Positions 1 through 31,787 of a stretch of DNA of 64,000 bases are shown piece by piece. The notes beneath the pieces are model-generated. The model did not search any database. It saw nothing but the letters and a program-made list of their open reading frames with translations, and was not told where the DNA came from. Origin of the DNA: a bacterium. GTDB lineage: Bacteria > Omnitrophota > Gorgyraeia > Zapsychrales > Zapsychraceae. The stretch lies in the NCBI GenBank assembly GCA_030429765.1, contig JAUIER010000012.1, positions 32,916-96,915 of the forward strand, given 5' to 3'. The first letter of the stretch is position 1. The number at the start of each line of letters is the position of its first letter. The translations under genes were made by a program, and so were the position numbers.

Positions 1-3000
1 GAATTTCCAGATTGGCTGACCATTAGGAAATCTCAAACCACCACCAGCCGGCGTTGGACTTTCATCGTATCGTGTTACCCGAAACTTGACTATACCATCC
101 GTATTGAACAGCTCATAGCAACGCTTCAACCCCCCCTTTCGGGTATAGGTCTCCACCTTGGGCCACTTAGGATCGGGACCTCCACCAACTCCACAGGCAT
201 TGTTACACCTCTTGGGTATTCGTCCCTCGACCTTTACGATATGCCAATAGGCCTCTCCCGGAGCTGCCGGCCTGTTTTCAGGTGAATTATCCTCCTGCCA
301 CCCATAAACGATTTGATTGGGCCAATCATCTGGTGGCGCTGCGTCATAGGCTATCCGTTCGTCGATCAACGGAGGAACCGCGTTGGTCAGAAAATCCTCA
401 AATTCGACGATGGCTGTGGTGAGAATATTCCGGAAGTAGTTTAACTCAGTCATTCTCGAATCCAGATAATCCCGGCGCATAATAAATTTGTCGATCTGGT
501 TTTCCGCCTCTATAGCCGCCGTTCCCGTGGAGGCTAGCCATCCTCCCGGGTTAATGTCACAAATAGGATTGGCCTGCACCAGTGAATCTCGCACCAACGT
601 GCGCATTCCGCGAGCATCATTCAAATCATTACCGTTACAGTCAAATATGGCATTAAAGTTGGAAATAGTTCCGCTGTAGGCATAAGCGGCCCCACTAGAC
701 GATTGAGTTAACGGCATGGCGGATAACACCGGATTCCATGGTAATCCGGCCGCCATTCCACGGCAGGTTAAATCCGAGCAGGCGTGAACACATTGGAGCA
801 TAGCAGCCATATCCGGCTCATCCAGCGGATCGGCCTGCACGTAGGCATTTCGATCATATGGCGGATTCGTCACCAATGTTCGCGGCAAATTGGTACATTC
901 GGCCAATGAGCAGGTTAGTTTACAATCATTGTACTGTGCATCGTTGCCGTCAAATATGCTTGATGCATTCAGACAGGCTACATCGGGGACCCCCCCGTTA
1001 CAAGTGTAATCATATCCGTGTATCGCGTAGTTGAGGCAAGCCACAACATCCTCAATTTGTCCATCCGTGCCGTCACCATTAAAGTCAAAAGTCAATTCCT
1101 CATAGGCACTTACGTCCGGACATCCCCGTGGCGGTACACACCACGGCCCCGTCGCACAAGCACTTCCCTGAAAACTTTGGACGGCCAGTGCACTCAGCTC
1201 ATCCCGAATGTCCACCAAGGCCTGTAGCCACAAATACAACTGCCCGGCAAATGGTTGGCATTCATCCGGCGTTCCCGGATCATTATCCCAATCATAAGGG
1301 TAGCAATTACCAAAATTGCCCGTCCCTCCTGGACTGGCCGCATTGGCCAATCCCTGGCCCGGATCGATCCATCGCTGCCAATTCTCAAACCATGTCTCAA
1401 ATTGCGATGCCAACTGACCGCGACTGTATTGCAATAGCGAATCAGCTTCTCGCGTAAATGTGTGCGTGTTATATATCATCTCGTCAAGAATATCCTCAGG
1501 GAAATTAGCGGCCGCGGTATCAGCTGGGCTGGTTGACGTCGGGTCCTCGCACTCACATATGGATGGTTCAGGGGTTCCGGAGACATTCGTCGTACAGTTA
1601 CCGTTCAGGAATTTGGCACATTGCCCACTGTAAGGCCATGCGGAAGGACCATCTATATCACCATTGGAACAAAATTGATCAGACCCACGCTTCCAGAATG
1701 CCCCCCCGGCATATGGGTCCGGCGCACATGTATCAACCGGGATTTCAAACGAACCTGTTAACGCCAAGGTCACATCATCAACATACGTCTCTACACAGTA
1801 GGATGTGTCATACGTCATGGTTGACGGGTCATTCCGTAATACCAGCTGATTCATTTCATATGGAAGATTAGGCGAACACAATGTAGCAGCCCTTGAATCA
1901 CACCATTTACACCGCTGGTCAAATGGGTTATAGACAGGGTTACCGATGACAAGCGTGCCCACCGTGTCCAATGAGTCCAGATCGGTTCCCCAGTCATGGA
2001 TCTTCCACAAGAATGGGAACACACCTATACGGTTTTCCGGAGTTGATGGCGGAGGAGCCGTGTACCCCGAATAGAATCCGGTGGTGTCGTCGACATAGTA
2101 ACGAATTCCCTGCCACGGAGGAGCAAACTGCTGCGCCCAGTTAGGGTTGGAGGAATCCTTGAAGTATCGTTGATTCTCGTCATCCTTGCCTAGGAGTTCC
2201 CGGAAGGAGAAAAAGGTATTTTCAGAATTTTCGAAATTTTCGTCAAAAACCCACTGATAGAAAGTCCCCAATGATGGCTCTACAGCCCCATATGGACTAA
2301 GCAATTGACAGGTACTGGCCGTTCCGCACTCCAAGTTTGGCGGGAAGAGTGTTGGATCACAGTAATCAGGGTTGGGTACCGTGATCAACGGTCCAGACGG
2401 GTTTGTTGGATCTGGTATCTGAATCGTCGGAGGTTTACCTCGACAGTCACAACATCCTGGTCGAACCTGAATCTGTCCAAAGGAAGGGCCTCGAGGATCA
2501 GGTACCGTGTCTGGCAAACAACACAAATTACACTCGGATGGGACCGAAAAAGGAAACGGATCGGTTACAGGATTGCCGTAAGGAACGTTGATATCCACGT
2601 GGCAAGGATGCGATGGATCCAGCGGAATCGAAAACGAGTAGTTGATAGTGCTGGTTTGCAGACCCGGGACGAAAGTTCCTGGCATGGGGTCAATTAGCGC
2701 CCAAGCCGGCTGGCAGGTCGCAGAATCCAAATCACATTCAGAGGCCGGTCCACAGGTGGTTCCAAAACAATCTCCGTTGGGCCCCGGAATCTTGTAAATA
2801 AAATCTTGAAGATCAACCAAAAATTGCTCTGCCGCAGGCAGATAATTTACGGCTATCTGGTCCAGCAAGAGCGGATAATATTTGGCGTACCGGTTCATGG
2901 TATCAAGCGGTTCAGATGTCACCGGATGAAGACCAAAGATACCATCCATATCTGAATCGTACAAATCTGGAACCTGCTTGTTGTCATTGGCTGCCACTTG

Positions 3001-3474
3001 AATAGCCCCGCGCATGGCGTTGGCCATAAACTGATCCACCGTATCCAGTAAGTTGGCCTCCAGATTATTCCATGCGCTGGTGATTTGGGAGCCTATGGAC
3101 ATTTGGAGTACCACCCCGACACCGGCAACAGCCACCGTGGTTATCGCAGCTGTCGCCCCAATAGCACCAACCCCGTACGTTACAACAACCAGAATAACAA
3201 TTACAATAAACGATATCAGCGCCTTGAAGAATCCTGTGCTTTGGCATTTCTTGCGTTCCCCACCCAGCTGCTGCATAAGCAACGAGTGCCCGTAGCTGGC
3301 CATGGCCGAGGCCAATGATGCCGCCCCGGTATTAGCCCCTATCTCCGTGGAAACTTTGTTTTCAGAGATCCGCCCCAAATTTAGTGTTACAGCATAAAAT
3401 ATCAACGCAAATGCGACAACCAAAAGGATAACCAGTCCGGCCTGGCCTTCTTTTTTTCGCATCGATTTGTTCAT
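1..3474 (-). CDS. Giant Cys-rich TadG-like protein, partial: N-terminus at 3474, C-terminus beyond the window start. N-terminal Tad/TadE-like pseudopilin-type TM segment (MNKSMRKKEGQAGLVILLVVAFALIFYAVTL), then a Cys/Pro/Gly/Asp-rich extracellular region.
   Basis: Manual translation of the reverse strand from ATG at 3474 stays open to position 1 (1158 codons) with no stop. The ORF track shows only short spurious ORFs here, because the long ORF has no stop inside the window. N-terminal hydrophobic segment resembles Tad/TadG (PF13400-like) proteins. About 50 Cys, including CC and CxC pairs. Confidence 0.6.
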   Translation of the reverse strand, partial: MNKSMRKKEGQAGLVILLVVAFALIFYAVTLNLGRISENKVSTEIGANTGAASLASAMASYGHSLLMQQLGGERKKCQSTGFFKALISFIVIVILVVVTYGVGAIGATAAITTVAVAGVGVVLQMSIGSQITSAWNNLEANLLDTVDQFMANAMRGAIQVAANDNKQVPDLYDSDMDGIFGLHPVTSEPLDTMNRYAKYYPLLLDQIAVNYLPAAEQFLVDLQDFIYKIPGPNGDCFGTTCGPASECDLDSATCQPAWALIDPMPGTFVPGLQTSTINYSFSIPLDPSHPCHVDINVPYGNPVTDPFPFSVPSECNLCCLPDTVPDPRGPSFGQIQVRPGCCDCRGKPPTIQIPDPTNPSGPLITVPNPDYCDPTLFPPNLECGTASTCQLLSPYGAVEPSLGTFYQWVFDENFENSENTFFSFRELLGKDDENQRYFKDSSNPNWAQQFAPPWQGIRYYVDDTTGFYSGYTAPPPSTPENRIGVFPFLWKIHDWGTDLDSLDTVGTLVIGNPVYNPFDQRCKWCDSRAATLCSPNLPYEMNQLVLRNDPSTMTYDTSYCVETYVDDVTLALTGSFEIPVDTCAPDPYAGGAFWKRGSDQFCSNGDIDGPSAWPYSGQCAKFLNGNCTTNVSGTPEPSICECEDPTSTSPADTAAANFPEDILDEMIYNTHTFTREADSLLQYSRGQLASQFETWFENWQRWIDPGQGLANAASPGGTGNFGNCYPYDWDNDPGTPDECQPFAGQLYLWLQALVDIRDELSALAVQSFQGSACATGPWCVPPRGCPDVSAYEELTFDFNGDGTDGQIEDVVACLNYAIHGYDYTCNGGVPDVACLNASSIFDGNDAQYNDCKLTCSLAECTNLPRTLVTNPPYDRNAYVQADPLDEPDMAAMLQCVHACSDLTCRGMAAGLPWNPVLSAMPLTQSSSGAAYAYSGTISNFNAIFDCNGNDLNDARGMRTLVRDSLVQANPICDINPGGWLASTGTAAIEAENQIDKFIMRRDYLDSRMTELNYFRNILTTAIVEFEDFLTNAVPPLIDERIAYDAAPPDDWPNQIVYGWQEDNSPENRPAAPGEAYWHIVKVEGRIPKRCNNACGVGGGPDPKWPKVETYTRKGGLKRCYELFNTDGIVKFRVTRYDESPTPAGGGLRFPNGQPIWKF

Positions 3475-3509
3475 AAATGACATCATATAATTGATTGTCC
3501 CGGGGCTAA

Positions 3510-3791
3510 TTAGTTGTCCCAAATAGCATTCATCGCCGTCCCCGACGAGAAAAATGGAGAAATCTGTGCAATTTGCTGACTGTCAGATACATTGGTATAT
3601 GACCGGCTCAACGTTTGACCGGTCAATATTGTGTCATGCGCAATCCTACGATTTACGATCTCTTTTCCTGACCATTCAAAAATTTTGGTTATCGAATAAA
3701 TCATCAGAAACACGATGATCATACTGAAGGTAAACTCAATGATGACCTGACCCAAGCGTCGTTCTTCAGATGTCTTCTTTCTTCGAATCAT
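3510..3791 (-). CDS. TadE-like pseudopilin (93 aa)
   Basis: N-terminus RRLGQVIIEFTFSMIIVFLMI matches the TadE-like pattern (basic residues, then G-Q/A, then an E-containing hydrophobic helix). Spacing to neighbours is 18-40 nt. Confidence 0.55.
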   Translation of the reverse strand: MIRRKKTSEERRLGQVIIEFTFSMIIVFLMIYSITKIFEWSGKEIVNRRIAHDTILTGQTLSRSYTNVSDSQQIAQISPFFSSGTAMNAIWDN

Positions 3792-3830
3792 TATATCATA
3801 CTCCTAACCGAGGAAATTGCCTACCAAATT

Positions 3831-5246
3831 TTACGGATATAGATACTGAACAAATGGATCTCCGTCCGTCGGCGTTATCCATTTTCGGCCATGCTTATCT
3901 GTTATCCGGCTTCGGACCAAAATGTGAGGATCCTGCCCGCCCAAAGTAGGAATAACCATACAGATTCTTGTCGCATTGGCGCTGGTAAAACAACAGGCAT
4001 TATTCGGACAGCACACCTCCACAGGATTACGCACATCTGATGTCCACCCAGCCTGATTTCCTTCAATCGTGCCCGGTTGAACTACAGAACTTCCATCCCC
4101 CGCCGTACCGTTGCAAAATCTGCCCGTATCATTACTCAGTTGAACCGTCCTCTGGATCAAATCAAGTGAATCTTTACGCTGTGCAGAACGAACATATCGT
4201 CTGGAATCGCCAGCCACCTGATACAACTGCCCCTCATCGATTTGAAGATAAGTGCCCACACCGTCACCGGCAGGTGTCCAATCTTTCGTAAATGTAAACA
4301 TTTGGATGTCTTGTGTCGTGATGCCCGCTGTCGGACGCTGCGGAGCCGGATTGAGAGGATCCGGATCTGGAATTGTAAAGTCCATGTCCCCTTCCTGGAA
4401 ATCCACCACATTGGCTGTTATCGGAGTCCCCCTCAGATCATCCATTGGACGGCCGTTGATACCAACAATCCTTTCCTGGTGCAAATCTCCATCGACATCC
4501 ACAAATGTAAATTCACCGTTTTCACCATCTATCTGTGAAGGTGTCGCAGCAATCCACTGCCACCAAAAATCCTGGCAGATCGCATCCATAGCCGGATCCG
4601 ACGCCAGTCCGTCATCAAGAGCCCCGTTTCGATCCAAATCGAATCGGTAGTAGTTGTTACCGCCGATATTGTCCACACAATTGGACGCCGTACCTCCACA
4701 ATCGCACCATGGTAATGCCGGGTGGTTGTTTTCTTTCTGATATACCAGCCCCGTGGGGTTGGCCGGAGAATTAAATGCCTTTGTCGCCACATTGGCTGTA
4801 GTGAACACAAAGTGCACCCCGTTAATAAAGTAATCGATAACCGGCAAATTGGCAAATTCACCCGGATCAATCGGCATAAAAAGATTACGACTATGGGTTG
4901 CTCCCCCAATCGCTTGTTGGGGAACCCTGTCGATTGGTGCCTGCCTGGAAGATTCCACCGACAGCCTATCTTCAATTACCAAAACTGAGGCACTGTTGCG
5001 GGAGGCGGTGCCATCACGCCAGTTTCCCGGAACATTTTTCAAACCTTCCGTAAATTCAAATGACATGAGCATCGCCAAGCGGAATGCTTTATAGCGATGA
5101 TTTTGTGCATAACTAGTTGTCATGACAGATCTTACAATAAGTCCAATAACAAAAACCACAACCGATCCAAACACCGCTAGTTCCAGAGCAGTTTGCGCTG
5201 TTTTGGATCGCCCCGAAATGGCTTTTTTTGTACGGTTAATATTCAT
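3831..5246 (-). CDS. Large TadE/TadG-like pseudopilin-type protein (471 aa). C-terminal Cys-rich region (VCCPNNACCF).
   Basis: N-terminus GRSKTAQTALELAVFGSVVVFVIGLIV is a Tad-type pseudopilin leader plus TM. Shares CC motifs with the giant gene downstream. Confidence 0.6.
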   Translation of the reverse strand: MNINRTKKAISGRSKTAQTALELAVFGSVVVFVIGLIVRSVMTTSYAQNHRYKAFRLAMLMSFEFTEGLKNVPGNWRDGTASRNSASVLVIEDRLSVESSRQAPIDRVPQQAIGGATHSRNLFMPIDPGEFANLPVIDYFINGVHFVFTTANVATKAFNSPANPTGLVYQKENNHPALPWCDCGGTASNCVDNIGGNNYYRFDLDRNGALDDGLASDPAMDAICQDFWWQWIAATPSQIDGENGEFTFVDVDGDLHQERIVGINGRPMDDLRGTPITANVVDFQEGDMDFTIPDPDPLNPAPQRPTAGITTQDIQMFTFTKDWTPAGDGVGTYLQIDEGQLYQVAGDSRRYVRSAQRKDSLDLIQRTVQLSNDTGRFCNGTAGDGSSVVQPGTIEGNQAGWTSDVRNPVEVCCPNNACCFTSANATRICMVIPTLGGQDPHILVRSRITDKHGRKWITPTDGDPFVQYLYP

Positions 5247-5249
5247 TTG

Positions 5250-5564
5250 CTAGTATGCTCCCACAGCCATAGAACCGGTTTTGGTTTCCAGTGAACGCGA
5301 GACATCATTACGCATTGTTTGCAGTCCAGACGGAGTCGATACAGACACCAGAGCCGTAACCGTATTCGTTTGAATAACATGACGTATACTTCCATTAGTC
5401 GTTCGAGGATCATACTGATCGCCTAATTGATCCACCGATTCTTTCCAACGTCCTTGCATGCCTCGCTTGAAGTAGTTTTGAGAGGCCACCAAGGCCCCTA
5501 TTACGATAATTAAAATCGTCGAGTATTCGATCGCTGATTGACCTTTGTTCTTTCTAATAATCAT
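5250..5564 (-). CDS. Flp-family (class III signal peptide) pilin-like protein, 104 aa
   Basis: N-terminus MIIRKNKGQSAIEYSTILIIVIGALVA carries the G/A-Q-x3-EY prepilin motif followed by a hydrophobic helix. Confidence 0.55.
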   Translation of the reverse strand: MIIRKNKGQSAIEYSTILIIVIGALVASQNYFKRGMQGRWKESVDQLGDQYDPRTTNGSIRHVIQTNTVTALVSVSTPSGLQTMRNDVSRSLETKTGSMAVGAY

Positions 5565-5591
5565 ATATTTATACCTCGACTTTATTCACCA

Positions 5592-5939
5592 TTAAACGTC
5601 TGGTTGGATCCCCAAATTAGTCAGGGTGTTAAGTTGGCCTGAAATCGCATCATCATAGACATAATTGATTATGCCGGCTACGTCTAATGTTTGCTTGTCT
5701 ACTCTGGCACTGGATATGCCATAAGATGCATTCAAATGCCCCTGGGTTATATCATTGAATCGCTGATCGGATTCGTTCTGCACGCCAATTTGATCGGCCA
5801 CAAATCTAATCCAACCTTGGGTGGAACGACGGATCATCGTTCCCATAACAGCCGTAATTGCCACAATAATCGTCAAAATCAGCGTATATTCGACCACCGT
5901 CTGGGCTCTGTGATTAGATTGTTTACTTTGCTTGAGCAT
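5592..5939 (-). CDS. Flp-family pilin-like protein, 115 aa
   Basis: N-terminus ...HRAQTVVEYTLILTIIVAITAVMG (A-Q-x3-EY motif plus hydrophobic helix). Confidence 0.5.
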   Translation of the reverse strand: MLKQSKQSNHRAQTVVEYTLILTIIVAITAVMGTMIRRSTQGWIRFVADQIGVQNESDQRFNDITQGHLNASYGISSARVDKQTLDVAGIINYVYDDAISGQLNTLTNLGIQPDV

Positions 5940-5944
5940 ATAAA

Positions 5945-6325
5945 TTAGTCCGCGTTTATGGCCGGAACTGTGAAACTGACAGAATTTGAAAATGTTGTTT
6001 GGTTGTAATCCTTGCGAAATATTCCAGAACTAAGTGGCAAGGAAGGTAATACGGCCGTCGTATCTGCAAATAAGGTCGTGGTATCTGTAACAGAATTTCG
6101 ATAGTATGGCTCATACTGTACGAAGACATCATTACCTCCGTAGATGTTTCCTACACGATTTCGAACGGTCGTGATAATGGAACTGTGGGCATCGCGAATT
6201 TTTGCCTGCACAGCCCGTCTAAAGTACATTGTCATTCCTGACAGCATGGCAACAACCACAAAAAAAACCAGAACATATTCTCCGGCGACCATTTGGGCTT
6301 TTTCATTTTCAAATCGTCTTAACAT
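5945..6325 (-). CDS. Flp-family pilin-like protein, 126 aa
   Basis: N-terminus ...EKAQMVAGEYVLVFFVVVAMLSGMTMY (A-Q-x4-EY motif plus hydrophobic helix). Confidence 0.5.
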   Translation of the reverse strand: MLRRFENEKAQMVAGEYVLVFFVVVAMLSGMTMYFRRAVQAKIRDAHSSIITTVRNRVGNIYGGNDVFVQYEPYYRNSVTDTTTLFADTTAVLPSLPLSSGIFRKDYNQTTFSNSVSFTVPAINAD

Positions 6326-6423
6326 TCTGGTCCTTTTTTAACACGGTAAGCTTCTCTATTATACACGAATCTATGGATAAAGATCAACTAAAAACACGTA
6401 TCACAAATTGTGAGCTACTTCAA

Positions 6424-6474
6424 CAAAATATGGCTTACCTGAGCAATTATATTCCTCAAGTAAGCCATATTTTG
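6424..6474. repeat. Perfect 15-bp inverted repeat (CAAAATATGGCTTAC … GTAAGCCATATTTTG) with a 21-bp spacer, in the pilin-cluster intergenic region
   Basis: Exact reverse-complement arms seen directly. Adjacent TCACAAATTGTGA palindrome at 6401..6413. Confidence 0.6.
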
Positions 6475-6509
6475 AACAAAACGACTAGCGAGTAGCCGTT
6501 TAGACTGTA

Positions 6510-6839
6510 TTAGTTACCCCAGAATTCTGACGTGTTGTTCAGAATTGCAGAGTTCATTAGGTCATACGTTGTCTCTGCTTGAGTCAACTGAGATCGTGTA
6601 ACCCCAGAAGCAAAAGTATCACGAGACTGTCCGATGACAACCATTTTCTTGATTACGTTAGTGTTACCTTCGGAATACTGTTGTCCAATATCATCAGCCG
6701 CTTGCTTCAATCGTCCTTGAACACCACGTTTGATGTATACCTGGATCGATAAAAGGGCACCAATGATAATGATGATCAGAATCGCATATTCCAATGTACT
6801 CTGACCTTTTTTTCTTTTCTTGTTAAAGTACTTAAGCAT
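6510..6839 (-). CDS. Flp-family pilin-like protein, 109 aa
   Basis: N-terminus MLKYFNKKRKKGQSTLEYAILIIIIIGALLSI. Nearly identical leader to the 7312..7533 paralog. Confidence 0.6.
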   Translation of the reverse strand: MLKYFNKKRKKGQSTLEYAILIIIIIGALLSIQVYIKRGVQGRLKQAADDIGQQYSEGNTNVIKKMVVIGQSRDTFASGVTRSQLTQAETTYDLMNSAILNNTSEFWGN

Positions 6840-6900
6840 TGATATATCCTCCCAAATTAATCCTCTAAGTTAATAGAGGGATTAAGTTATTATCTTCAGA

Positions 6901-7260
6901 TTACAGACCTTGAATAAGACCAAGCGCGGTGTTATATGATGATTCTTGGAAACCACCAACCCCTCTTGTTCTTGCGTTATCTGTTTGCTCAGCAACTGTC
7001 GTGTTATCCAATGTTTGGATTTGGTTAGTCGCTGTATCAATCAGATAATCAGTTTGTAGGTAATACGGCTCGTATTGTGCTGCTGTTCCCAAAGCGTTTG
7101 ATTGAGTAGTCATGTACTGCCCAGCTTCACGAACCCTGGCTTGTAGAGCACGTTGTGCATATGTCTGCATCGCAATAATACCGGCCACAACCAGTGAAAT
7201 CAGGATGGCATATTCTGCAGTATTTTGCGCCTTTTTATTTTTTATTAACTTTCTGAACAT
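6901..7260 (-). CDS. Flp-family pilin-like protein, 119 aa
   Basis: N-terminus MFRKLIKNKKAQNTAEYAILISLVVAGIIAM. Confidence 0.55.
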   Translation of the reverse strand: MFRKLIKNKKAQNTAEYAILISLVVAGIIAMQTYAQRALQARVREAGQYMTTQSNALGTAAQYEPYYLQTDYLIDTATNQIQTLDNTTVAEQTDNARTRGVGGFQESSYNTALGLIQGL

Positions 7261-7311
7261 TTATTTGTCCTCCTAAGATTAAATTCATGTAAAGATTGAA
7301 TTTTTCAAACA

Positions 7312-7533
7312 TTAGTTAGAAGTAGGTCGTGAAGTGGCCAATCGGTTAGCCATATCAGTCATACCGTTTGTACCCGTCGTTAGTGTACTGTTGTACGCTG
7401 TACGGAAGATACCATTAGGTCCTAGGAAAACCAAAAGGGCTGCTAATACGGCCGCAACCAAAATGATATACTCAACGGTACTTTGACCTTTCTTTTTCTT
7501 TTTAGGATTATTATTTATATTCCTTTTAAGCAT
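7312..7533 (-). CDS. Flp-family pilin, 73 aa
   Basis: N-terminus ...KKKKKGQSTVEYIILVAAVLAALLVFLGPNG. Shares the FLxPNG motif with the orphan gene at 17400..17612. Confidence 0.6.
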   Translation of the reverse strand: MLKRNINNNPKKKKKGQSTVEYIILVAAVLAALLVFLGPNGIFRTAYNSTLTTGTNGMTDMANRLATSRPTSN

Positions 7534-7592
7534 TGTCTTCCTCCTTAAAAAAGTTCACTTTTAAGATAGCGCCCACAAAACTTCATCGTGGG

Positions 7593-7760
7593 TTACTGAT
7601 TTCTGGACTCTTGAAGAATTATTTGTTGTGTTGCTTGTACTGATCTAAATACATAGGTACTCATGGCAATTGCTCCTGCTGCCACAATGGCTGCGATTAA
7701 GGCATACTCTAGTATACTTTGACCTGTCGTGTTTCTGATTTTTTGTTTCTTTGACCTCAT
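7593..7760 (-). CDS. flp: Flp prepilin, 55 aa (MRSKKQKIRNTTGQSILEYALIAAIVAAGAIAMSTYVFRSVQATQQIILQESRNQ). Below the ORF-track size cutoff.
   Basis: Found by manual reverse-strand translation. Classic Flp motif: a predicted cleavage site after G, then QSILEYALIAAIV. Typical Flp size. First gene after a dedicated promoter and leader. Confidence 0.6.
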   Translation of the reverse strand: MRSKKQKIRNTTGQSILEYALIAAIVAAGAIAMSTYVFRSVQATQQIILQESRNQ

Positions 7761-7912
7761 CGTAACCACCTTATGTATTTCACAAATAATGCCTGCTCTC
7801 GATGTGATGTTGCTTACATCAGAATCCTGAGAGCTCTATTGCTGAAGGGGTCGACTGTCCAGCCGGCCTTCAACACTTCGAAACATCCTGACTGATTCAG
7901 AACGAACCGAAG

Positions 7913-7935
7913 GGTAAAAGCACTCGAAAGTGCTA
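7913..7935 (-). terminator. Second leader hairpin: AGCACU-UUCG-AGUGCU followed by UUUAC
   Basis: 6-bp stem with a UUCG tetraloop and a weak U-run. Confidence 0.25.
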
Positions 7936-7947
7936 TTAACTCATTCC

Positions 7948-7977
7948 AATAAAAAACCCCTACAGTTATGTAGAGGT
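7948..7977 (-). terminator. Intrinsic-terminator-like hairpin in the flp leader (attenuator candidate)
   Basis: Minus-strand RNA reads CCUCUACA-UAAC-UGUAGGGG followed by UUUUUUAUU. The 8-bp stem holds a U.G wobble only on the minus strand; on the plus strand the same position would be a C.A mismatch. Confidence 0.4.
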
Positions 7978-7984
7978 AATCGGG

Positions 7985-8053
7985 TTATGGCTGTTTCAAT
8001 GAACGCAGACAGCATCTATACGAAATTTTCGTTTTGATCTCAAAAGTATTCAT
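7985..8053 (-). CDS. Candidate leader peptide (uORF, 22 aa: MNTFEIKTKISYRCCLRSLKQP) in the flp 5' leader
   Basis: AGGAG, 6 nt, then ATG. The stop lies about 8 nt upstream of an intrinsic-terminator-like hairpin. Confidence 0.25.
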   Translation of the reverse strand: MNTFEIKTKISYRCCLRSLKQP

Positions 8054-8111
8054 TTTTTCTCCTAGGAATGAAATCGTCATATCTGTATAAATGGCTGTTT
8101 AATGTGATAAA

Positions 8112-8139
8112 AGTATATCATATATCGAGTAATTGTCAA
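8112..8139 (-). promoter_or_regulatory. Sigma70-like promoter for flp
   Basis: On the minus strand: TTGACA at 8139..8134, a 16-nt spacer, TATACT at 8117..8112. Lies immediately downstream of the stop of the 576-aa gene. Predicts a 5' UTR of about 345 nt. Confidence 0.45.
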
Positions 8140-8164
8140 GGATCATGCAATGGTTGCCCTTCCC

Positions 8165-9895
8165 TTATATTAGGTCGAAGTTTAGCCGCCGCCCCTGTCG
8201 ATCCCGGATGTCCCGTGAATTGATCTCCTTGACCGCATGAATTAGCGAAGCCTTTGAATCCGCGGCCGATCCTGCCGAAATAGTCACATATACATGGCTC
8301 TCGTCCAATCGGTATGTGGCGGCACGGTCAAAAGTATCTGAAATTGTTAGACTTACGTATTTGCTGAGATATTGCCCCTCTACATAGGCCTGAACATGAG
8401 ATAAAAGTTGCTCGAACATTCCATCGACGTTCATTATAGTTGTCGCTGCGATCGGTTGAGAAGCCGACGGATCCTCATTTGAGGATACGGGCGCTTGATT
8501 GACATATTTCCGCATGAATGCATCCAGGATGTCCGTATCGGCCGTTTCTGCATTAGTAACCAGGGCCACTAGCGGCTCAGGTGATTCGTGAGCCCAAATG
8601 GCAAATACTGTCAGTGGCTGACTCAAATCATGAACATGTTCGTTCAGAATGTCGGTCGACATCTTGGCATACTGATAGATTGTGTCGTCATCATGACAGT
8701 AATAGGGGATTCGCTGGGCCCATTTCCCCGATTTGACCAATTCCTTCAGTTCTGGCTGACTTGGATGGACTCCAATGATAAATTCCCTGCGCTTAGGGAC
8801 CACGAAGGGTAGACTGGACAATGATCGTGATTCGCCATCAAGTATGTGGACCTCGTTTATAAAAAGCTGCTCTGGAATCTCAAATGATTCGACTAACGCC
8901 GCTATCTCCGGGCTTCCCAAGGAGCGTCCCTCGCTATTAAGCAGACACAAAGTATTGCTATTACTGACGATACAGCTGTCCAAAACAGAAATAGCCTTGT
9001 AAAGCGGTAGCTTCGTTGAAAAATTGTCATTTTTTTGTCCAATCTGAAATAGCTTTGTGTCCAGTTTTAGAGATCGTCCATCCGAAAAATCGATCTGGAA
9101 ACTCTGCGCCATGTTCTTGAGTTGATCAATCTCCAACTCTGCACGGGCCCAAAACGAGCCTGACTGTGAAGAATCAGTAATTTTGCCAATGACTCCCTCA
9201 TTTTGGAGTGGAAGCAACAAGGCTAAATCATTTCGACCTGAGTCTGAAGGGCCATTTTTCTCAAGCCTTGTGAGAATCTGAAAATCCAAGGCCTGGATCG
9301 TTTCCTGAGAATTAATGTCCAAACTGAGATCTCGAAAGAGTTCTGTGTAAAAATTTGACGATAGACATTCACATACACCGGCCAACATAAAAGTCAATCC
9401 TGCGTTGCTAATCGGATGCTCCTCCAAACCTTGTTTCCTTGACCGAATTGTTTCTACGGAGCGTAAGAACTCTTCGTCCAAACCACTCTCAGATTGGACA
9501 TTATTTTTGATCGCGTCCATTTCTTCTGTTTGACCAGAATCCGACATTGTCTGTACAGCTTCACTCTTTGTCGGATCATTTTCCTGGGGAGTAGTGACCC
9601 CTTCGGTTTCGGTCGGTATCGGGATCTTGGTGAGGTCCTGCGAAATCTGAATTTTCTTTTCAGCCGGGATCTCAAACTTCTTTTTCTTCTCGACCTTGAC
9701 CTTGGCCGGTCGACCAACGGAATTGCTTAAATTAGCTTGTTTTAGGATGGTGTTGATGGAGGATTTTGACACCTTGATCTCAAATTTCTCAGATGTCATC
9801 TCGGCTAGTTTTCGACAGCCCAGCTTGGGATTTGATTGCTTCTGATCAAGTATATAGTCGATAACTTCTTTTTTTAGTTTGTGGACAACACCCAT
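8165..9895 (-). CDS. HTH-domain protein of unknown function, 576 aa. N-terminal transposase/regulator-like HTH, a Lys-rich linker, then a large uncharacterised soluble region.
   Basis: N-terminal 60 aa (…KLGCRKLAEMTSEKFEIKVSKSSINTILKQANLS) looks like an IS630/ISL3-type HTH. No TM segments. Sits where tadB/tadC would be expected. Confidence 0.65.
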   Translation of the reverse strand: MGVVHKLKKEVIDYILDQKQSNPKLGCRKLAEMTSEKFEIKVSKSSINTILKQANLSNSVGRPAKVKVEKKKKFEIPAEKKIQISQDLTKIPIPTETEGVTTPQENDPTKSEAVQTMSDSGQTEEMDAIKNNVQSESGLDEEFLRSVETIRSRKQGLEEHPISNAGLTFMLAGVCECLSSNFYTELFRDLSLDINSQETIQALDFQILTRLEKNGPSDSGRNDLALLLPLQNEGVIGKITDSSQSGSFWARAELEIDQLKNMAQSFQIDFSDGRSLKLDTKLFQIGQKNDNFSTKLPLYKAISVLDSCIVSNSNTLCLLNSEGRSLGSPEIAALVESFEIPEQLFINEVHILDGESRSLSSLPFVVPKRREFIIGVHPSQPELKELVKSGKWAQRIPYYCHDDDTIYQYAKMSTDILNEHVHDLSQPLTVFAIWAHESPEPLVALVTNAETADTDILDAFMRKYVNQAPVSSNEDPSASQPIAATTIMNVDGMFEQLLSHVQAYVEGQYLSKYVSLTISDTFDRAATYRLDESHVYVTISAGSAADSKASLIHAVKEINSRDIRDRQGRRLNFDLI

Positions 9896-9960
9896 AGTTT
9901 TCCTAAGATCATCAGATTGGACATTTAAGTATACCGTCCAAATGCGTTTAGGTCAATGGT

Positions 9961-10326
9961 CTAACCAAGAATAATTTTGTCAGCGACTTGAGTGCGGGAA
10001 GATTGGATGACTCCTACTGGAACTTCGATGGCGGATTTTGCCTTCCAGTAAATTCGGCTTAGCCGATTGGGTCGGATATTTTGGACCAAACCCACCACGG
10101 TATTATTGTCATCGATAAAAATCACATCAATGGCGAAACGCATAAAGAACATGTGAATAGAATTACAATGGGTGATTAGCAGACCGTGACCCGGCTCTAG
10201 GGACTTGTGCTTAAGTAATCCCACCATTCTGGACATAAAGGTATCTGCTAAGACGGCTTGATCTGCGATAACCGTATTACGGGTGGAGTTTTCTATCTTC
10301 ATAAGGGTTAGGTTTTGATGTGCCAA
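9961..10326 (-). CDS. DUF192 (COG1430) family protein, 121 aa
   Basis: Size and sequence pattern (…GLLITHCNSIHMFFMRFAIDVIFIDDNNTVVGL…) typical of DUF192. Confidence 0.6.
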   Translation of the reverse strand: MAHQNLTLMKIENSTRNTVIADQAVLADTFMSRMVGLLKHKSLEPGHGLLITHCNSIHMFFMRFAIDVIFIDDNNTVVGLVQNIRPNRLSRIYWKAKSAIEVPVGVIQSSRTQVADKIILG

Positions 10327-10344
10327 CGTCGACGGGGATAGGCA

Positions 10345-12504
10345 CTAGACAGGCTTGTTGAACATCTCTTTATTGAAGTTCATTCCACGGGTAATAAAGT
10401 CGTGGTAACAGTTGGGGACGTATCCTGTGGCCTCAAACTGACCGAGAATCTTGCCATTGCTGTCCATCCCCTTTTGTTTAAATACAAAAACATCCTCGAG
10501 ATGAAGTTGAAAATCGGCCGTGAGTCCTGTTGTCTCGCTGACCCCCGTGATCTTTCTCGAACCGTCTGAATAACGGTTGATGTGAACGATGATCTGAATC
10601 GCTGAGGAGATCATCTCGTTAATCGCACGCACTGGCAGCTCGATACCACTTAACAGAATCATCGAGTGCATTCGGGTCAATACATCGCGTGTTGAGTTGG
10701 CGTGTAGCGTGGTCATTGATCCATCGTGACCGGTATTCATCGCCTGAAGCATATCAAGAACCTCGCCCCCGCGACACTCACCGATAACAATCCGGTCAGG
10801 ACGCATCCGCAGACAGTTGATAAACAAATCACGAATCGTGATCTGCCCTTTACCCTCAACGTTCGCTGGGCGTGACTCCAGACGTCCCCAATGGCTTTTC
10901 TTCAATCGAAGCTCAGCGGCGTCCTCAATCGTGATAATACGCTCGCTGTCGGGAATAAATTCTGAAACGACGTTTAGGAGCGTTGTTTTACCCGCACCTG
11001 TACCACCCGAAACGATCATATTTTTACGGCAAATAACACATGCCTGAAGAAAATCGGCCATTTCCTTGGTGATACTGCCGTATTTTTCAATCAAATCATT
11101 GACCTCGATACGTTCCTGCCCAAACTTTCGAATGGTGATCATTGGTCCGCCCAACGACAAAGGTGGAATAATGGCATTGATCCGCGATCCGTCCTGCAGA
11201 CGGGCATCAACCATCGGAGTCGATTCATCGATTCGTCGACCTAATGGCGCGATGATACGATCAATAATGGAGCGCATCTTTTCATTGGAAACAAATTTTC
11301 GATTGGTAAAAATCAACTTACCATTCTTCTCGACGTAGATTTCGTCCTTGTTGTTGACCATGATATCCGTTACGTCGGGATCGGCCAGGAAATCTTCCAA
11401 AGGACCCAGTCCAAGGGCCTCATTGACAATATCACGGACCACGCGTGTGCGCTCTTCTTGTGAGGAAATCTTACCACCAGACTCCTCCATAAGTAAGTTA
11501 AGAACGACCTGCTCGGCGCTTTTCTTGACCTTTACCGCCGATTCCGGATCACCCAGCATATCAACCGAAATTCCGTCGAGATTAAGCCGTTCGACCAATT
11601 TCTCATGAATCCGTTTCTTCAGCGATATAATCTCATCCTCTTCCGTCGCAAATGTCGTTGTCGTTCCCGCTTGCTGCGTGACACCAAATTTTTCCCAGAA
11701 CGATCCTTGTCCGGACATACCGTCAGTTGATCTGACCTTTTCGACATTGCTGGTCTCAACGTAAATATCGTTCTTCTTGAGCGCATTGACCATTTTGTTG
11801 AATGCATCAGCCACCCCGCTGCGAGGGCTATCTAATACGCAAGGAATCCCCTTGTTAAGGGCCATTCCGACCGTTTTTCCATCTGAAGGAATGTGCGCTA
11901 ATATTTCAACTGGAATCGCCGATCGAACTTCCTGCCAATGGACACTTCCGCGGCTCTCCGAACGGTTTAAGATCAGGCGGACCATATTCATCGGGTAGTG
12001 GAGACTCTGTAAAACGTCCAGACAATTCTTAATCTGATACACAGATAAAATATCCGGCGTTCCGACGAGAAGAATCAAATTCGTGTGGTCCAGCGCGGCG
12101 ACTAGAATATCACTAAACGTACGACCGGCATCAATAATGACATACTCGTATTGTTTGCGGGCAATACGAAAGAACGCCTGTAAAGCCTCGGCATTAACCT
12201 GAGCGATTTCTTTATTGTTTTTTATGGCTGGTAGGAAATGAAGTCCACTTTGATGGACGGTGGCATGCTGAGCTAACGGATCTTGATCGGCATTTGGATT
12301 GCTGAACGTGGGTATGATATCGACGACGGAATTACGAACCTGGACATTAAGCATTCGGGACATATCCTGTCCGGCCTGCATGTCTAGATCGACGAGCAAC
12401 ACCTTTTTTCCAGCTTTGGCTAGTGAAGCCGAAAGGTTTACTGCCGTCAGCGTTTTTCCAACCCCGCCCTTGCTGCTAAAGACGGTAATAATTCTACAAT
12501 CCAT
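10345..12504 (-). CDS. Fused pilus ATPase: N-terminal TadZ/CpaE-like ParA/MinD-type domain (no receiver domain) plus C-terminal TadA/CpaF secretion ATPase
   Basis: Deviant Walker A SSKGGVGKTLTAVNLS at residues 10-25 (ParA/MinD class). Second P-loop VSGGTGAGKTTLLN with T2SSE-family motifs (RIITIEDAAEL, GHDGSMTTLHANS) in the C-terminal half. Confidence 0.85.
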   Translation of the reverse strand: MDCRIITVFSSKGGVGKTLTAVNLSASLAKAGKKVLLVDLDMQAGQDMSRMLNVQVRNSVVDIIPTFSNPNADQDPLAQHATVHQSGLHFLPAIKNNKEIAQVNAEALQAFFRIARKQYEYVIIDAGRTFSDILVAALDHTNLILLVGTPDILSVYQIKNCLDVLQSLHYPMNMVRLILNRSESRGSVHWQEVRSAIPVEILAHIPSDGKTVGMALNKGIPCVLDSPRSGVADAFNKMVNALKKNDIYVETSNVEKVRSTDGMSGQGSFWEKFGVTQQAGTTTTFATEEDEIISLKKRIHEKLVERLNLDGISVDMLGDPESAVKVKKSAEQVVLNLLMEESGGKISSQEERTRVVRDIVNEALGLGPLEDFLADPDVTDIMVNNKDEIYVEKNGKLIFTNRKFVSNEKMRSIIDRIIAPLGRRIDESTPMVDARLQDGSRINAIIPPLSLGGPMITIRKFGQERIEVNDLIEKYGSITKEMADFLQACVICRKNMIVSGGTGAGKTTLLNVVSEFIPDSERIITIEDAAELRLKKSHWGRLESRPANVEGKGQITIRDLFINCLRMRPDRIVIGECRGGEVLDMLQAMNTGHDGSMTTLHANSTRDVLTRMHSMILLSGIELPVRAINEMISSAIQIIVHINRYSDGSRKITGVSETTGLTADFQLHLEDVFVFKQKGMDSNGKILGQFEATGYVPNCYHDFITRGMNFNKEMFNKPV

Positions 12505-12560
12505 AATTTCAAACTTACTGAAGAATGACTAATGAAAATTTAACGTATTATATACCGCTA

Positions 12561-14222
12561 TTAGTTTGTTTGCAAACTATAAACAATCGGAATTGTTATG
12601 TTCAGTTCCTGTAAGTCTGTCTCTGGTGGAAAACTTTCAAAAGGTGCAGTTTCACGGGCTGTATTTAAGGCATAGTCATCAAAGATTTCCTGCCCGGATG
12701 TTTCCTTGACTAGAGCATAGGCCAACGTGCCATCGCTCAGGATGTGCAGACCGATTTTGACAGTCCCTTCCCATCCGTAATCCTTGGCCTCCTGAGGATA
12801 AACAACTTGCTCAGAAATAGCCTGCTGAAGGTTTTGCACGTAATCGGTCATTTCCGGTGGAATAAATGACGAGTAGTCATCTCCTCCGGACATGGACATA
12901 TCCGACATAAACTTCGTCGTCGTAGGGTGCGGAACCTGACTATCCATCATCTTTTTACGAGGCGAATCCTCATTGAGCCCCGTATCGATTCGATGAGGTG
13001 TTAGTGAAATCACTAACTCGACATCTGAATCTGGTGATGGTGTTGATCGGGATCGGAAAACCAATCCGACAACTGGAATGCTGCCTAAAAATGGTACCTT
13101 TTTAACCAATTCACCCGAACGCTGTTGGATCAAACCGGCCAATACGATCGTTTGTCCATCATCAAGGAATAGCTGTGTGCTTGCGCTTCGCGTAACGAAG
13201 GCCACGTCATCCCCCACCGCATTCGAGTTGTCAATATCACTGATCTCAATATTGATCTGAACGTCAATCTTGTTACGCCGAATCGTCGGTGTGATCGTCA
13301 TTCCAATACCATACTCCTTAAATTCGACGTTTTCTTGAGTAGACGTTCCTGTCGATGTCGTCGTACGAATTGGAATTTCACCACCAATTAGGAAACTAGC
13401 CTCTTCGCCGCTCAGAACTACGAGTTTAGGTTGCGATAGGATTCGTCCCATACCTTCTTCTAATAGAGCATTTACGGTAGAAATCAGGGCGCTTGTACGA
13501 CGGAAGTCCCCAATCTTGAAGAAATCTCCAATGGATCCATCAAAATCAGGCAAGTCCTCTGCATAGTCCAGCTTAATACCTCCGCCGGATCCGGTGGCGC
13601 CATTACCACCACCAGCTGTCCAGTCAATCCCTAGACTCTTGGTTAAGGTGGTGTTAAGCTCCGTAACTTGTATGTCGATTTGAACCAAATCTTCGATGTC
13701 CTCTTCTTCCACAAGGCTTAGAACATGTTGGTCAAACGGAGCAATGATATCATCAAACAGTATGGCCTTTTTGTCAGGCACACTACCAGTTAGGACAACC
13801 CGCCCTTCCGGCTTATTGATATCCAATTTTACGTTGTTAATTCCAGCCCCATTGAGAAGTCGTTCAAGTCGATCTTTAATGACGCTTAACTCGGTTCCTG
13901 AGACGTTAATCATAACCACACGTTTGCCATGTTCGTCCCAGATAAATAAAGGTGTTTGGCCCACGTTTTTGGCAATCAGCAGGATTTCCTGTTCGTCGGC
14001 ATCGACAACGTCAGCAATGTCTGGATCAGTCATCGAAAGTCGGGTCAGGGAATATACGCGTAGTTGCGTCAACTCCCCCAGAACCATGTTGACTTCATCG
14101 GTGTATATTGTATCTAAAGCCTCAGCATCGGCTTGTTGAGGTCTTATTAGCCCAAGTCCCATTATTAGGAAGAGCGCCATTATGGTGAAAAATCTGTTAT
14201 GAGTTATCTGTGCTGTTTTCAT
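12561..14222 (-). CDS. CpaC/RcpA-type secretin with a C-terminal TonB_C-like domain
   Basis: Signal peptide, secretin N-domain, secretin core (…LIGGEIPIRTTTSTGTSTQENVEFKEYGIGMTITPTI…). The C-terminal roughly 90 aa (VVYPQEAKDYGWEGTVKIGLHILSDGTLAYALVKETSGQEIFDDYALNTARETAPFESFP) matches the TonB C-terminal domain pattern (PF03544). Confidence 0.8.
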   Translation of the reverse strand: MKTAQITHNRFFTIMALFLIMGLGLIRPQQADAEALDTIYTDEVNMVLGELTQLRVYSLTRLSMTDPDIADVVDADEQEILLIAKNVGQTPLFIWDEHGKRVVMINVSGTELSVIKDRLERLLNGAGINNVKLDINKPEGRVVLTGSVPDKKAILFDDIIAPFDQHVLSLVEEEDIEDLVQIDIQVTELNTTLTKSLGIDWTAGGGNGATGSGGGIKLDYAEDLPDFDGSIGDFFKIGDFRRTSALISTVNALLEEGMGRILSQPKLVVLSGEEASFLIGGEIPIRTTTSTGTSTQENVEFKEYGIGMTITPTIRRNKIDVQINIEISDIDNSNAVGDDVAFVTRSASTQLFLDDGQTIVLAGLIQQRSGELVKKVPFLGSIPVVGLVFRSRSTPSPDSDVELVISLTPHRIDTGLNEDSPRKKMMDSQVPHPTTTKFMSDMSMSGGDDYSSFIPPEMTDYVQNLQQAISEQVVYPQEAKDYGWEGTVKIGLHILSDGTLAYALVKETSGQEIFDDYALNTARETAPFESFPPETDLQELNITIPIVYSLQTN

Positions 14223-14225
14223 AGT

Positions 14226-15104
14226 CTATAGCTCCGCGCCCCCCCGAAAGATTTGAACAAAAGGCAAGTCATCCGCTTCAACTTCCTCGACTTCGACAGA
14301 CTCACGCCGCTCTGCTTTTTTCTGCTTTGGCAGATTGAGCTCTGTCCCTTGCTTATCCAAAACATAATCGGATAGTGAATCCCAGGCGGCCACTTGTAAC
14401 GCTTTAGTGTCTTTCTCCGCCGGAGATCGTAGGGCTAGTTTTAACTTTCCGTATTTCTGAGAAAAAGTGATCAACCCCGCTTCTTCAGGGGCGACTGCGA
14501 TCGTGACATTCAAGTCCCTTGATTTTTGTTGTTGCTGATAAACCAGCGCACTTCCTACCGGTTTAAAATTCGAATTGACGGCCAGCACCTGAATGTTCTG
14601 GAAGAGCACAGATGTAACTTCCAGTGGTTTTTCGAGAGGATCTTGGGGATGTGGCACCTGCAGATCAGCCAAGATATCTACATAATCTCCCGGATTGATC
14701 AATCCACCTACCGCCGATAGAGAATCGATCAGAATTGTCATGGCGCGTTTTCCTGGAGGTGTGATTGAAGCGAACACTGTACTGTCCACAATTTGCGTCG
14801 GCATGCCGGCGGCTGATTTGGCAACTTCACCTTTTGGAAGGTTAGCTAACTGTGCCTGCAACGCTTTTTGCTGTTGCTGCGCCATGGCCTGCATTTGTTT
14901 ATGTAATTCGCGGTTTTTGATCTCCATCTCTTTCCGCAAAGCAGCCGTTTGGGCTTGGGACTTCTTTTCGTAGTCCTGGGCCAATGCCTTGGTTTGTGAT
15001 TCAATACTTCCTTTAACGTATTGACTCATCAAGAAGGCAGCCACAAGCCCTAAACCCACAGCTAGTAGTATCGTTGCAAATTGTTTTTTGTTTTCAATGT
15101 TCAT
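14226..15104 (-). CDS. CpaB/RcpC-like pilus assembly protein: N-terminal TM, Gln-rich coiled coil, SAF/RcpC-like domain
   Basis: Matches CpaB in topology, domain pattern and position upstream of the secretin. Confidence 0.6.
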   Translation of the reverse strand: MNIENKKQFATILLAVGLGLVAAFLMSQYVKGSIESQTKALAQDYEKKSQAQTAALRKEMEIKNRELHKQMQAMAQQQQKALQAQLANLPKGEVAKSAAGMPTQIVDSTVFASITPPGKRAMTILIDSLSAVGGLINPGDYVDILADLQVPHPQDPLEKPLEVTSVLFQNIQVLAVNSNFKPVGSALVYQQQQKSRDLNVTIAVAPEEAGLITFSQKYGKLKLALRSPAEKDTKALQVAAWDSLSDYVLDKQGTELNLPKQKKAERRESVEVEEVEADDLPFVQIFRGGAEL

Positions 15105-26609: not shown

Positions 26610-26669
26610 TTGTTAACACCTCGCTAACTATATTTTTTAAATTAAACTAGTCTTCGTATTAGTAGAACC

Positions 26670-26678
26670 TGTGGATAA
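26670..26678. promoter_or_regulatory. Consensus DnaA box (TGTGGATAA) in the dnaN-dnaA intergenic region
   Basis: Exact 9-mer match. Confidence 0.5.
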
Positions 26679-26758
26679 TTTGAACAAATTTATAACATAC
26701 TGAATTAATTGAATTTACAACTTAAATCGATGTTTATAACCTATGTGCAAACCCGTGG

Positions 26759-31757: not shown

Positions 31758-31787
31758 TGTTCAAATATTGAACAAAAGGAGTTGTTA

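Follow-up and report, generated by a model that had tools for sequence, protein, structure and literature searches.

We propose that the gene at positions 10345..12504 on the minus strand of the window, by which we mean the whole 64,000-nucleotide stretch of contig JAUIER010000012.1 analyzed here, likely specifies, for a Tad (Flp, type IVc) pilus of an Omnitrophota bacterium, a cytoplasmic engine in which a receiver-less TadZ is tethered to the TadA motor. TadZ (CpaE), as the assembly and positioning ATPase, and TadA (CpaF), as the extension and retraction motor, would thereby be joined through a disordered linker of about 37 residues that meets the motor at a helical bundle. The architecture itself is not new, as it is known from Bdellovibrio, and the finding is no longer surprising because the same type of fusion has already been described there, but the Omnitrophota protein is a new case. 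What it adds is a phylum-wide occurrence in the Omnitrophota together with a presence in the Elusimicrobiota, a division between complete and substituted N-terminal modules, a conserved tether motif, and a setting without nearby platform genes next to a secretin with a TonB_C tail.

Two ATPase modules in a single polypeptide

The tadZA-like gene is one open reading frame (ORF) of 719 residues with an ATG start and a stop codon at 10345-10347, and this and every feature of the gene and of the Tad locus given below lies on the minus strand. Pfam places AAA_31/ParA/CbiA matches at residues 4-242 and a T2SSE match at residues 364-644 (2.6e-59, 201 bits), and there are two P-loops, SSKGGVGKT at residues 10-18 (KGGVGKT at residues 12-18) and GGTGAGKTT at residues 500-508. 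The initial annotation had read the gene from its letters as a single-polypeptide fusion of a TadZ/CpaE-like ATPase, of the MinD/ParA type and with SSKGGVGKT within residues 1-250, to a TadA/CpaF ATPase, and this stands, as there is one ORF and both family assignments hold.

The TadZ/CpaE-type domain of the ParA/MinD class occupies residues 1-250 (11755..12504), as delimited by Pfam, the representative search, the blastp and tree comparisons and the structural model, and its deviant Walker A, K12-G-G-V-G-K17-T18 (12451..12471), is picked out by conservation among homologues. The absence of the receiver-like (ARD) domain, which had also been claimed, is borne out, since the Walker A already starts at residue 12 and the ATG lies only 56 nt past the stop codon of the preceding secretin gene, which leaves no coding space upstream for such a domain. 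In the AlphaFold2 model (76 homologues; mean pLDDT, the predicted local distance difference test score, of 81) the ParA-like module of residues 1-250 is confident (pLDDT 89.6), and values below 50 are confined to residues 260-289, between two confident modules. These residues correspond to nucleotides ∼11638-11726, in agreement with the earlier guess of a junction at about 11700. The tether as a whole is assigned to residues 251-287 (11644..11754) on the basis of pLDDT, its range of lengths and its low conservation.

Beyond the low-confidence stretch the model continues with a helical bundle (residues 288-364, 11413..11643; helices at 288-309, 320-342, and 349-364, from the model and helix conservation), followed by the N-terminal domain (NTD) and C-terminal domain (CTD) of CpaF. 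The NTD and ATPase core together span residues 365-719 (10348..11412), as given by Pfam, structure matches and motifs. The helix at the start of the CpaF part, EEDEIISLKKRIHEKLVERL, is common to all of the fusions with the pattern DEIIxLKxRIHxxL, and split TadA genes have comparable N-terminal sequence ahead of the ATPase core. Hence the CpaF part begins near residue 288, at the N-terminal helical bundle, and not at residue 330 as first annotated, while the completeness of the T2SSE/CpaF ATPase and its GGTGAGKTT P-loop were correctly described. Its Walker A (500-508), Asp box (521-532), Walker B/Glu (570-579) and His box (590-603) are invariant or near-invariant in 76 homologues.

The C-terminal half is, as judged by sequence comparison, a CpaF/TadA protein. 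Its score against the Caulobacter CpaF structures is 380 bits (E 1e-113) over residues ∼348-697, compared with 128 bits for FlaI/GspE and 120 bits for VirB11, and 8rjf and 9e24 occupy the top ranks of the Foldseek search. The N-terminus of Caulobacter CpaF is short and disordered, whereas the window protein has the tether and a whole TadZ-type ATPase in that position. All of the ATPase motifs, as well as the organization into helical bundle, NTD and CTD, are shared with Caulobacter CpaF (PDB 8RKD, 8RJF, 9E24).

Assignment of the N-terminal half

The family of the N-terminal half was assigned by three independent tests. The first was an exhaustive HMMER search with residues 1-262 against 1.84 billion representatives, which gave 117 matches at E<=1e-30. 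Of the 150 best representative matches, 94 consist of an N-terminal extension of at least 100 residues and the ATPase, which is the CpaE/TadZ layout, and those sampled are Response_reg plus ParA in Pfam and are called 'pilus assembly protein CpaE' by JGI. The rest include five or six full-length fusions, the remainder being short proteins that are mostly fragments.

The second test was collinearity in a survey of GTDB species genomes, which covers 80 loci among the matches listed and is a sample rather than a census; the counts of split and fused genes given here refer to it. In about 55 of the 80 loci the fused protein aligns collinearly over adjacent tadZ-tadA pairs, in which a TadZ of 390-440 residues (Walker A at ∼145-190) is followed after a gap of 4-40 bp by a TadA of 430-480 residues. 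The pairs come from Acidobacteriota, Actinomycetota, Chloroflexota, Bacillota, Planctomycetota, Proteobacteria, and Nitrospirota. This comparison, which had been suggested as a split alignment against separate CpaE and CpaF proteins, agrees with the fusion and with the statement that tadZ and tadA are normally two genes. Coverage of query positions ∼26-737 by tblastn in the 80 genomes cannot be equated with fusion, as stop-to-stop ORF analysis resolved about 55 cases into adjacent genes and only 13 into single ORFs.

In the third test, by blastp, the N-domain of the window protein scores up to 161 bits against TadZs encoded beside tadA, compared with 56-59 bits against MinD of Escherichia coli and Bacillus subtilis and 48 bits against the window's own Soj. 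A neighbor-joining (NJ) tree likewise sets MinD and Soj apart from all TadZ and fused domains in 77 of 100 bootstraps. By these tests the N-terminal half is TadZ/CpaE-type, as the initial annotation had it.

The opposing view is that this domain is a MinD/ParA/FlhG-type ATPase of cell division or chromosome segregation, unrelated to pili and fused to CpaF by chance. The best NCBIfam models for residues 4-253 are archaeal and bacterial MinD, JGI labels many homologues 'septum site-determining protein MinD', and MinD shares both the fold and the deviant Walker A, KGGVGKT. However, the NCBIfam scores of 97 and 93.5 bits are far under the curated cutoffs of 201.75 and 212.9, and MinD heads the list because no general TadZ model competes with it. 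The domain scan that had been recommended is therefore divided on this half, with Pfam ParA/AAA_31 in accord with the annotation and NCBIfam naming MinD below its cutoff, and on its own a plain HMM scan would have misled. The nearest unfused relatives have the CpaE layout and are not the ubiquitous MinDs of ∼265 residues, TadZ scores are two to three times those of MinD and Soj, the domain fills the exact slot of tadZ between rcpA and tadA, and the window has a separate Soj/ParB pair at 30837-32669. Moreover, the C-terminus of the domain runs on into the tether and CpaF, which makes a free C-terminal membrane-targeting amphipathic helix of the MinD kind impossible, and the parts of the window that were scanned yielded neither minC nor minE. 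We regard a MinD origin as highly improbable.

Fold comparison does not discriminate between TadZ and MinD, as the subfamilies overlap, and to that extent it leaves the MinD view some room. The best fold match to the N-domain is 3EA0, a 'ParA family ATPase' with a TadZ-type Walker A of its own, KGGDGGS, at a template modeling (TM) score of 0.88-0.90, and MinD, FlhG, and FleN match at 0.73-0.83. The solved TadZ of Eubacterium rectale is not among the top 50 fold matches, and nothing on 3EA0 was found in the literature searched.

With the canonical TadZ/CpaE proteins (TadZ of Aggregatibacter actinomycetemcomitans, CpaE of Caulobacter, and TadZ of E. rectale) the domain shares the ParA/MinD-class ATPase with its signature lysine (K/RGGxGxS/T) and the gene slot directly upstream of tadA and downstream of rcpA, and they are its nearest unfused relatives by sequence. 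They differ in being separate polypeptides of ∼390-440 residues with an N-terminal receiver-like domain. Proteobacterial and acidobacterial TadZs also lack the Walker A lysine and the switch-I aspartate, both of which the window protein has, like the TadZs of Actinobacteria and Bacillota.

Recurrence of the fusion

Since tadZ and tadA lie 4-40 bp apart in most of the bacteria sampled, a single indel might mimic a fusion in one assembly, and the possibility of a chimeric assembly, of a frameshift from sequencing, or of an overlooked stop codon therefore has to be considered. The search for fusions in related genomes that the initial annotation had called for speaks against this. With a single exception, the top 120 homologue clusters are proteins of ∼680-770 residues that match the query over its full length at 63-79% identity; their sources are NCBI, JGI, ENA, and Logan assemblies, and those that are named are Omnitrophota. 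A second search, for which distant fusions supplied the profile, gave ∼110 further clusters, for a total of ∼230 protein clusters (clustered at 90% identity) in which the same single ORF occurs in independent assemblies, and a chimera is rejected because the architecture recurs among them.

The recurrence includes contigs of 2-3.4 Mb, and the neighborhood is conserved on two contigs of 2.0 and 3.3 Mb, which share with the window the order gyrB-gyrA ... PPIase - RcpC - secretin with TonB_C - fusion - DUF192 - ∼560-residue orphan - Flp-like pilins - giant protein. In addition, the tether can be aligned across homologues and contains a conserved motif, none of these clusters has the receiver-like domain, which an indel cannot explain, and the TadZA of Bdellovibrio has been seen as a full-length tagged protein (10.64898/2026.07.08.737194). 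An artefact can thus be dismissed with near certainty.

An apparent split state in close relatives (P0123, P0128-P0130; locus L004) proved to consist mostly of truncated fusions that enter the N-terminal helix of CpaF; P0128 (258 residues) ends earlier than the other short matches, ahead of the tether.

Catalytic residues and the tether motif

The catalytic set of the TadZ module, K12, K17, T18, D39, D41, and D125, is complete in the window protein, and KGGVGK[T/S] is present in 116 of 120 close homologues. Among fusions of the Omnitrophota type, K12, T/S18, D39, D41, and D125 are found in 61 of 61 and K17 in 60 of 61, and the fusions of the Bdellovibrionota are also catalytically complete (K-K-S-D-D-D). 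From its sequence, the Omnitrophota module retains all of the residues that ParA/MinD ATPases require for ATP-dependent dimerization and hydrolysis. The fusions of the Elusimicrobiota type (P0153, P0211, P0287, P0295, and others) have K17Q in 14 of 15, D41N in 13 of 15, and D125N in 14 of 15, a coordinated change of Walker A, switch I, and Walker B in which the signature lysine is retained, and their TadZ module looks like that of a natural hydrolysis-dead fusion. Split TadZs of Actinomycetota and Bacillota are mostly complete at the six positions, and those of Proteobacteria, Acidobacteriota, Chloroflexota, and Planctomycetota are 'atypical'; the proteobacterial TadZs that have been studied are atypical ATPases of low activity (PMC6668835).

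The tether varies from 18 to 52 residues among homologues and is poorly conserved outside the motif F-W-x-K-F-G (F269-W-E-K-F-G274 in the window protein, 11683..11700), which occurs in 109 of 119 close homologues compared with 0.6% of shuffled linkers. The motif is not present in the fusions of Bdellovibrionota or Elusimicrobiota, and those of the Bdellovibrionota have a common L-x-x-L-x-x-x-K-K-P-S in its stead. By analogy with Bdellovibrio, where TadZ plus linker binds a polar protein (see below), the Omnitrophota motif is a candidate for the site at which a lineage-specific partner docks.

Relationship to Bdellovibrio TadZA and origin of the fusion

The closest known system is the receiver-less TadZA fusion of Bdellovibrio bacteriovorus, which was described and tested in a July 2026 preprint (10.64898/2026.07.08.737194). 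TadZA is required for predation, its TadZ plus linker is needed and also suffices for binding the polar hub RomR, the positioning of Tad depends on RomR, and the protein shuttles rapidly between the poles (10.64898/2026.07.08.737194). In the literature searched this preprint, which cites an earlier prediction, is the only description of a receiver-less TadZ joined by a linker to TadA, and the Omnitrophota papers searched discuss Tad genes and not the fusion.

Both proteins, and that of Bdellovibrio sp. HCB288, have a receiver-less TadZ, a flexible linker, and TadA in a single ORF. In both Bdellovibrio and the window the gene follows rcpC-rcpA, the locus has no prepilin peptidase, the tad genes are dispersed, and the catalytic residues of TadZ are complete. 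The N-domains of Bdellovibrio are, however, only 22-30% identical to that of the window (71-93 bits), the tether carries LxxLxxxKKPS rather than FWxKFG, and the next gene in the operon is tadB, whereas in the window it is a DUF192 gene with no T2SSF nearby.

The 13 single-ORF fusions come from Omnitrophota (L005, L006), Elusimicrobiales (L047), WOR-3, Eremiobacterota (1282 residues), Bdellovibrio sp. HCB288, two Bdellovibrionales, one Pseudobdellovibrionaceae, one Oligoflexia, a 'Deltaproteobacteria' metagenome-assembled genome (MAG) that groups with the Bdellovibrionota set, and two unclassified MAGs. Named Elusimicrobiota fusions also appeared in the second homologue search, and the HCB288 locus reads RcpC - secretin - ParA+T2SSE fusion (740 residues) - T2SSF. 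As rcpC-rcpA-[tadZ-tadA] matches the gene order of canonical tad loci, the fusion arose from two adjacent genes by loss of the stop and start between them and of the receiver-like domain.

Whether this happened once is a separate matter. In the best NJ trees of both domains the fusions of Omnitrophota, Elusimicrobiota, and Bdellovibrionota join one another apart from the split pairs. The TadA-domain tree has all of the fusions on one side and all of the split TadAs on the opposite side (70 of 100 bootstraps), the fused side also holding some long TadAs without an upstream TadZ match. The TadZ-domain tree unites the 24 receiver-less fusions in a single clade, within which the Bdellovibrionota subgroup has 100 of 100. 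These fusions have all lost the receiver-like domain, and the Omnitrophota TadB/C group with those of Bdellovibrionales (Seymour et al., PMC10066038). A single origin for the three is hence the best tree, although it is not established from these sequences, as the clade of all receiver-less fusions has a bootstrap support of 9-14 of 100. The alternative, that the Omnitrophota fusion arose independently of Bdellovibrio TadZA by convergence and not from one ancestral fusion through descent or transfer, is a serious possibility to which we give somewhat less than even chances. It would account for the window N-domain scoring only 71-93 bits against the fused Bdellovibrionota domains when split TadZs of Bacillota and Actinomycetota reach as much as 161 bits, for the dissimilar tether motifs, and for the different downstream genes, tadB and DUF192.

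Convergence also has precedent, as fusion has happened more than once. The WOR-3 fusion (L056; 842 residues stop-to-stop, with a linker of ∼150 residues) arose independently, to judge from the position of its TadZ domain among acidobacterial split TadZs, and that of Eremiobacterota (L061; 1282 residues stop-to-stop, with an N-terminal extension of ∼310 residues and a weak TadZ match) is differently built. Together these two point to repeated, independent joining of tadZ and tadA.

Two further arrangements were observed in these searches. At nine loci (L041, L057, L058, L063, L065, L069, and L077-L079) TadA has a long N-terminal extension (Walker A at ∼330-380, or ∼810 in L063) and no TadZ was detectable upstream; their ATPase domains group with the fused TadAs, and a TadZ module that has degenerated or been replaced might account for the extension. 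Tandem CpaF/TadA proteins were also found outside the window, one of 815 residues with two complete ATPase modules (P0298-P0302; L085 7001-9448; one cluster on 7 contigs) and one of 1155 residues with three modules, each with a Walker A, Glu box, and His box (P0089; L086 7001-10468; a single contig). Both loci are Tad-like, with a VWA protein and two T2SSF genes and with no TadZ among their called genes; a TadE gene lies beside the two-module CpaF and an A24 peptidase beside the three-module CpaF. Such proteins would be covalent dimers or trimers of the hexameric motor.

Tad locus and genome context

The fusion is flanked by RcpC, the secretin and about ten Flp- or pseudopilin-like genes. Upstream are the RcpA/CpaC secretin (12561..14222), which has a C-terminal TonB_C domain at residues ∼472-550, and RcpC/CpaB (14226..15104), and directly downstream is a DUF192 (COG1430) gene (9961..10326), all from Pfam matches. 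All of the Omnitrophota loci examined share the TonB_C tail, which is essentially absent from 67 other Tad loci; the one weak match among these lies far from the secretin of its locus. Next comes a gene for a cytoplasmic orphan of 576 residues with a weak N-terminal helix-turn-helix match (8165..9895). Related Omnitrophota loci have a gene of 552-567 residues at this position that is similar only over the N-terminal ∼60-115 residues, and in the more distant Omnitrophota locus L005 the position is taken by an unrelated 800-residue orphan, a PIG-L/GH3 protein, and a TPR protein. We considered the orphan as a divergent platform protein and rejected it, as it has no hydrophobic segment (maximum Kyte-Doolittle value of 1.32 over a 19-residue window).

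Positions 1-7769 hold ten consecutive genes whose products begin with G/A-Q-x3-4-E-Y and a hydrophobic helix. Seven are small Flp-type prepilin genes of 58-126 residues with G/A-Q-x3-4-E-Y N-termini (5250..7769), whose homologues match Flp_Fap and Class_IIIsignal, and the others are three larger pseudopilin-like genes, each with a class-III-signal N-terminus, namely one of 471 residues (3831-5246), one of 93 residues (3510-3791), and a giant ORF of at least 1162 residues (1-3486) that runs off the start of the window. The giant ORF has no Pfam match, and giant homologues of 1304-1356 residues are present in L001 and L002.

The remaining genes of the scanned window are housekeeping (dnaA, dnaN, gyrBA, yidC, soj/parB, tRNA synthetases, Trk, and Nqr). 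The sign of the GC skew changes near 26 kb, beside dnaA-dnaN-gyrB-gyrA (∼26000-28105), which places the Tad locus (3500-15104) ∼10 kb from the replication origin. The gyrBA-linked position is repeated in L001 and L002, and the Tad locus of Velamenicoccus archaeovorus is reported to lie at 12-30 kb of its chromosome (PMC10066038).

TadB follows TadA in 58 of the 67 other Tad loci, and DUF192 is present in 27 of 67, where its usual place is behind tadB/tadC. With DUF192 directly following the ATPase gene, the order in the Omnitrophota thus resembles the canonical one minus tadB/C. Tad genes that include TadB/C are reported from the Omnitrophota, and V. archaeovorus expresses the Tad complex in co-culture (PMC10066038).

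A proposed tethered TadZ at the base of the pilus

The CpaF part would be expected to form hexamers like the solved CpaF, in which case each motor would carry six tethered TadZ modules, and these could pair into up to three ATP-sandwich dimers around it. Such an arrangement may match the 'outer cytoplasmic ring' of Caulobacter, which cryo-electron tomography could not assign and which CpaE possibly forms (PMC12637624). Through the tethered modules the motor may be connected with the RcpC/secretin assembly and with a cellular landmark, the latter perhaps by way of F-W-x-K-F-G, by analogy with the binding of RomR by TadZ plus linker in Bdellovibrio. The TadB/C platform and the prepilin peptidase would be supplied from elsewhere in the genome, and the obligatory 1:1 coupling of TadZ with the motor that the initial annotation had proposed would follow from the covalent linkage.

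Several points weigh against this proposal. The best NCBIfam models for the N-terminal half are the sub-cutoff MinD models noted above, and the C-terminal half scores 331.4 bits against the TIGR03819 (TadA) cutoff of 373.15, a hypoth_equivalog named 'TadA family conjugal transfer-associated ATPase' that may cover a TadA subfamily only. Pfam and tblastn detected no T2SSF (TadB/C), either in those parts of the 64-kb window that were scanned or across ±10 kb at the five other Omnitrophota loci L001-L003, L005, and L006; nor was an A24 peptidase found in the scanned parts of the window. The predicted TM score (pTM) of the fusion is 0.54, which is uninformative on how the two modules pack, and hence a fixed packing of the two halves is not predicted. 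We infer the hexamer stoichiometry, the dimerization of TadZ, its ATPase activity, and the landmark partner, and polar positioning may not be the relevant function in ultra-small Omnitrophota.

This last point bears on a different role for the TadZ module, that of an ATP-dependent clutch or assembly chaperone rather than a localizer, whose dimerization gates CpaF or drives assembly of the secretin and RcpC. The Omnitrophota module has all of the hydrolysis residues, compared with the atypical, low-activity TadZs of Proteobacteria (PMC6668835), secretin assembly in Caulobacter needs CpaE (PMC12637624), and most Omnitrophota are ultra-small cells (PMC10066038). On the other hand, TadZ plus linker of Bdellovibrio binds the polarity hub RomR and Tad positioning there is RomR-dependent (10.64898/2026.07.08.737194), and the Elusimicrobiota-type fusions have lost the catalytic residues and are still fused, so that hydrolysis is not essential to the architecture. 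A clutch is conceivable but rather unlikely, and we continue to favor a TadZ that tethers and positions the motor. A more elaborate machine with two engines, in which catalytic cycles of TadZ dimerization switch CpaF on and off or between extension and retraction while FWxKFG docks a landmark or envelope partner, and which with the TonB_C secretin and a remote platform would be a distinct, contact-triggered Tad variant suited to ultra-small epibiotic or predatory cells, is a speculative idea that we think improbable.

Implications

A natural covalent chimera of TadZ and TadA argues that both proteins act next to each other in the basal part of the machine, and the fusion is a ready-made construct for structural studies of the connection between TadZ and the motor. 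The complete N-modules of Omnitrophota and Bdellovibrionota and the triple-substituted ones of the Elusimicrobiota type also amount to a natural experiment on whether hydrolysis by TadZ matters.

The fusions are named in NCBI as 'Flp pilus assembly complex ATPase component TadA' or 'ATPase, T2SS/T4P/T4SS family', and in JGI as 'septum site-determining protein MinD' or 'pilus assembly protein CpaF'. As the pipelines name one half only, annotations do not reveal the TadZ component, and Tad-system detectors that demand a separate TadZ may score such loci as incomplete. The occurrence of the fusion throughout the Omnitrophota, in the Elusimicrobiota and in the Bdellovibrionota extends the Bdellovibrio result past one genus, and at least two of these phyla include predatory or host-dependent small cells. 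It is relevant to work on Tad systems and on predatory and epibiotic bacteria.

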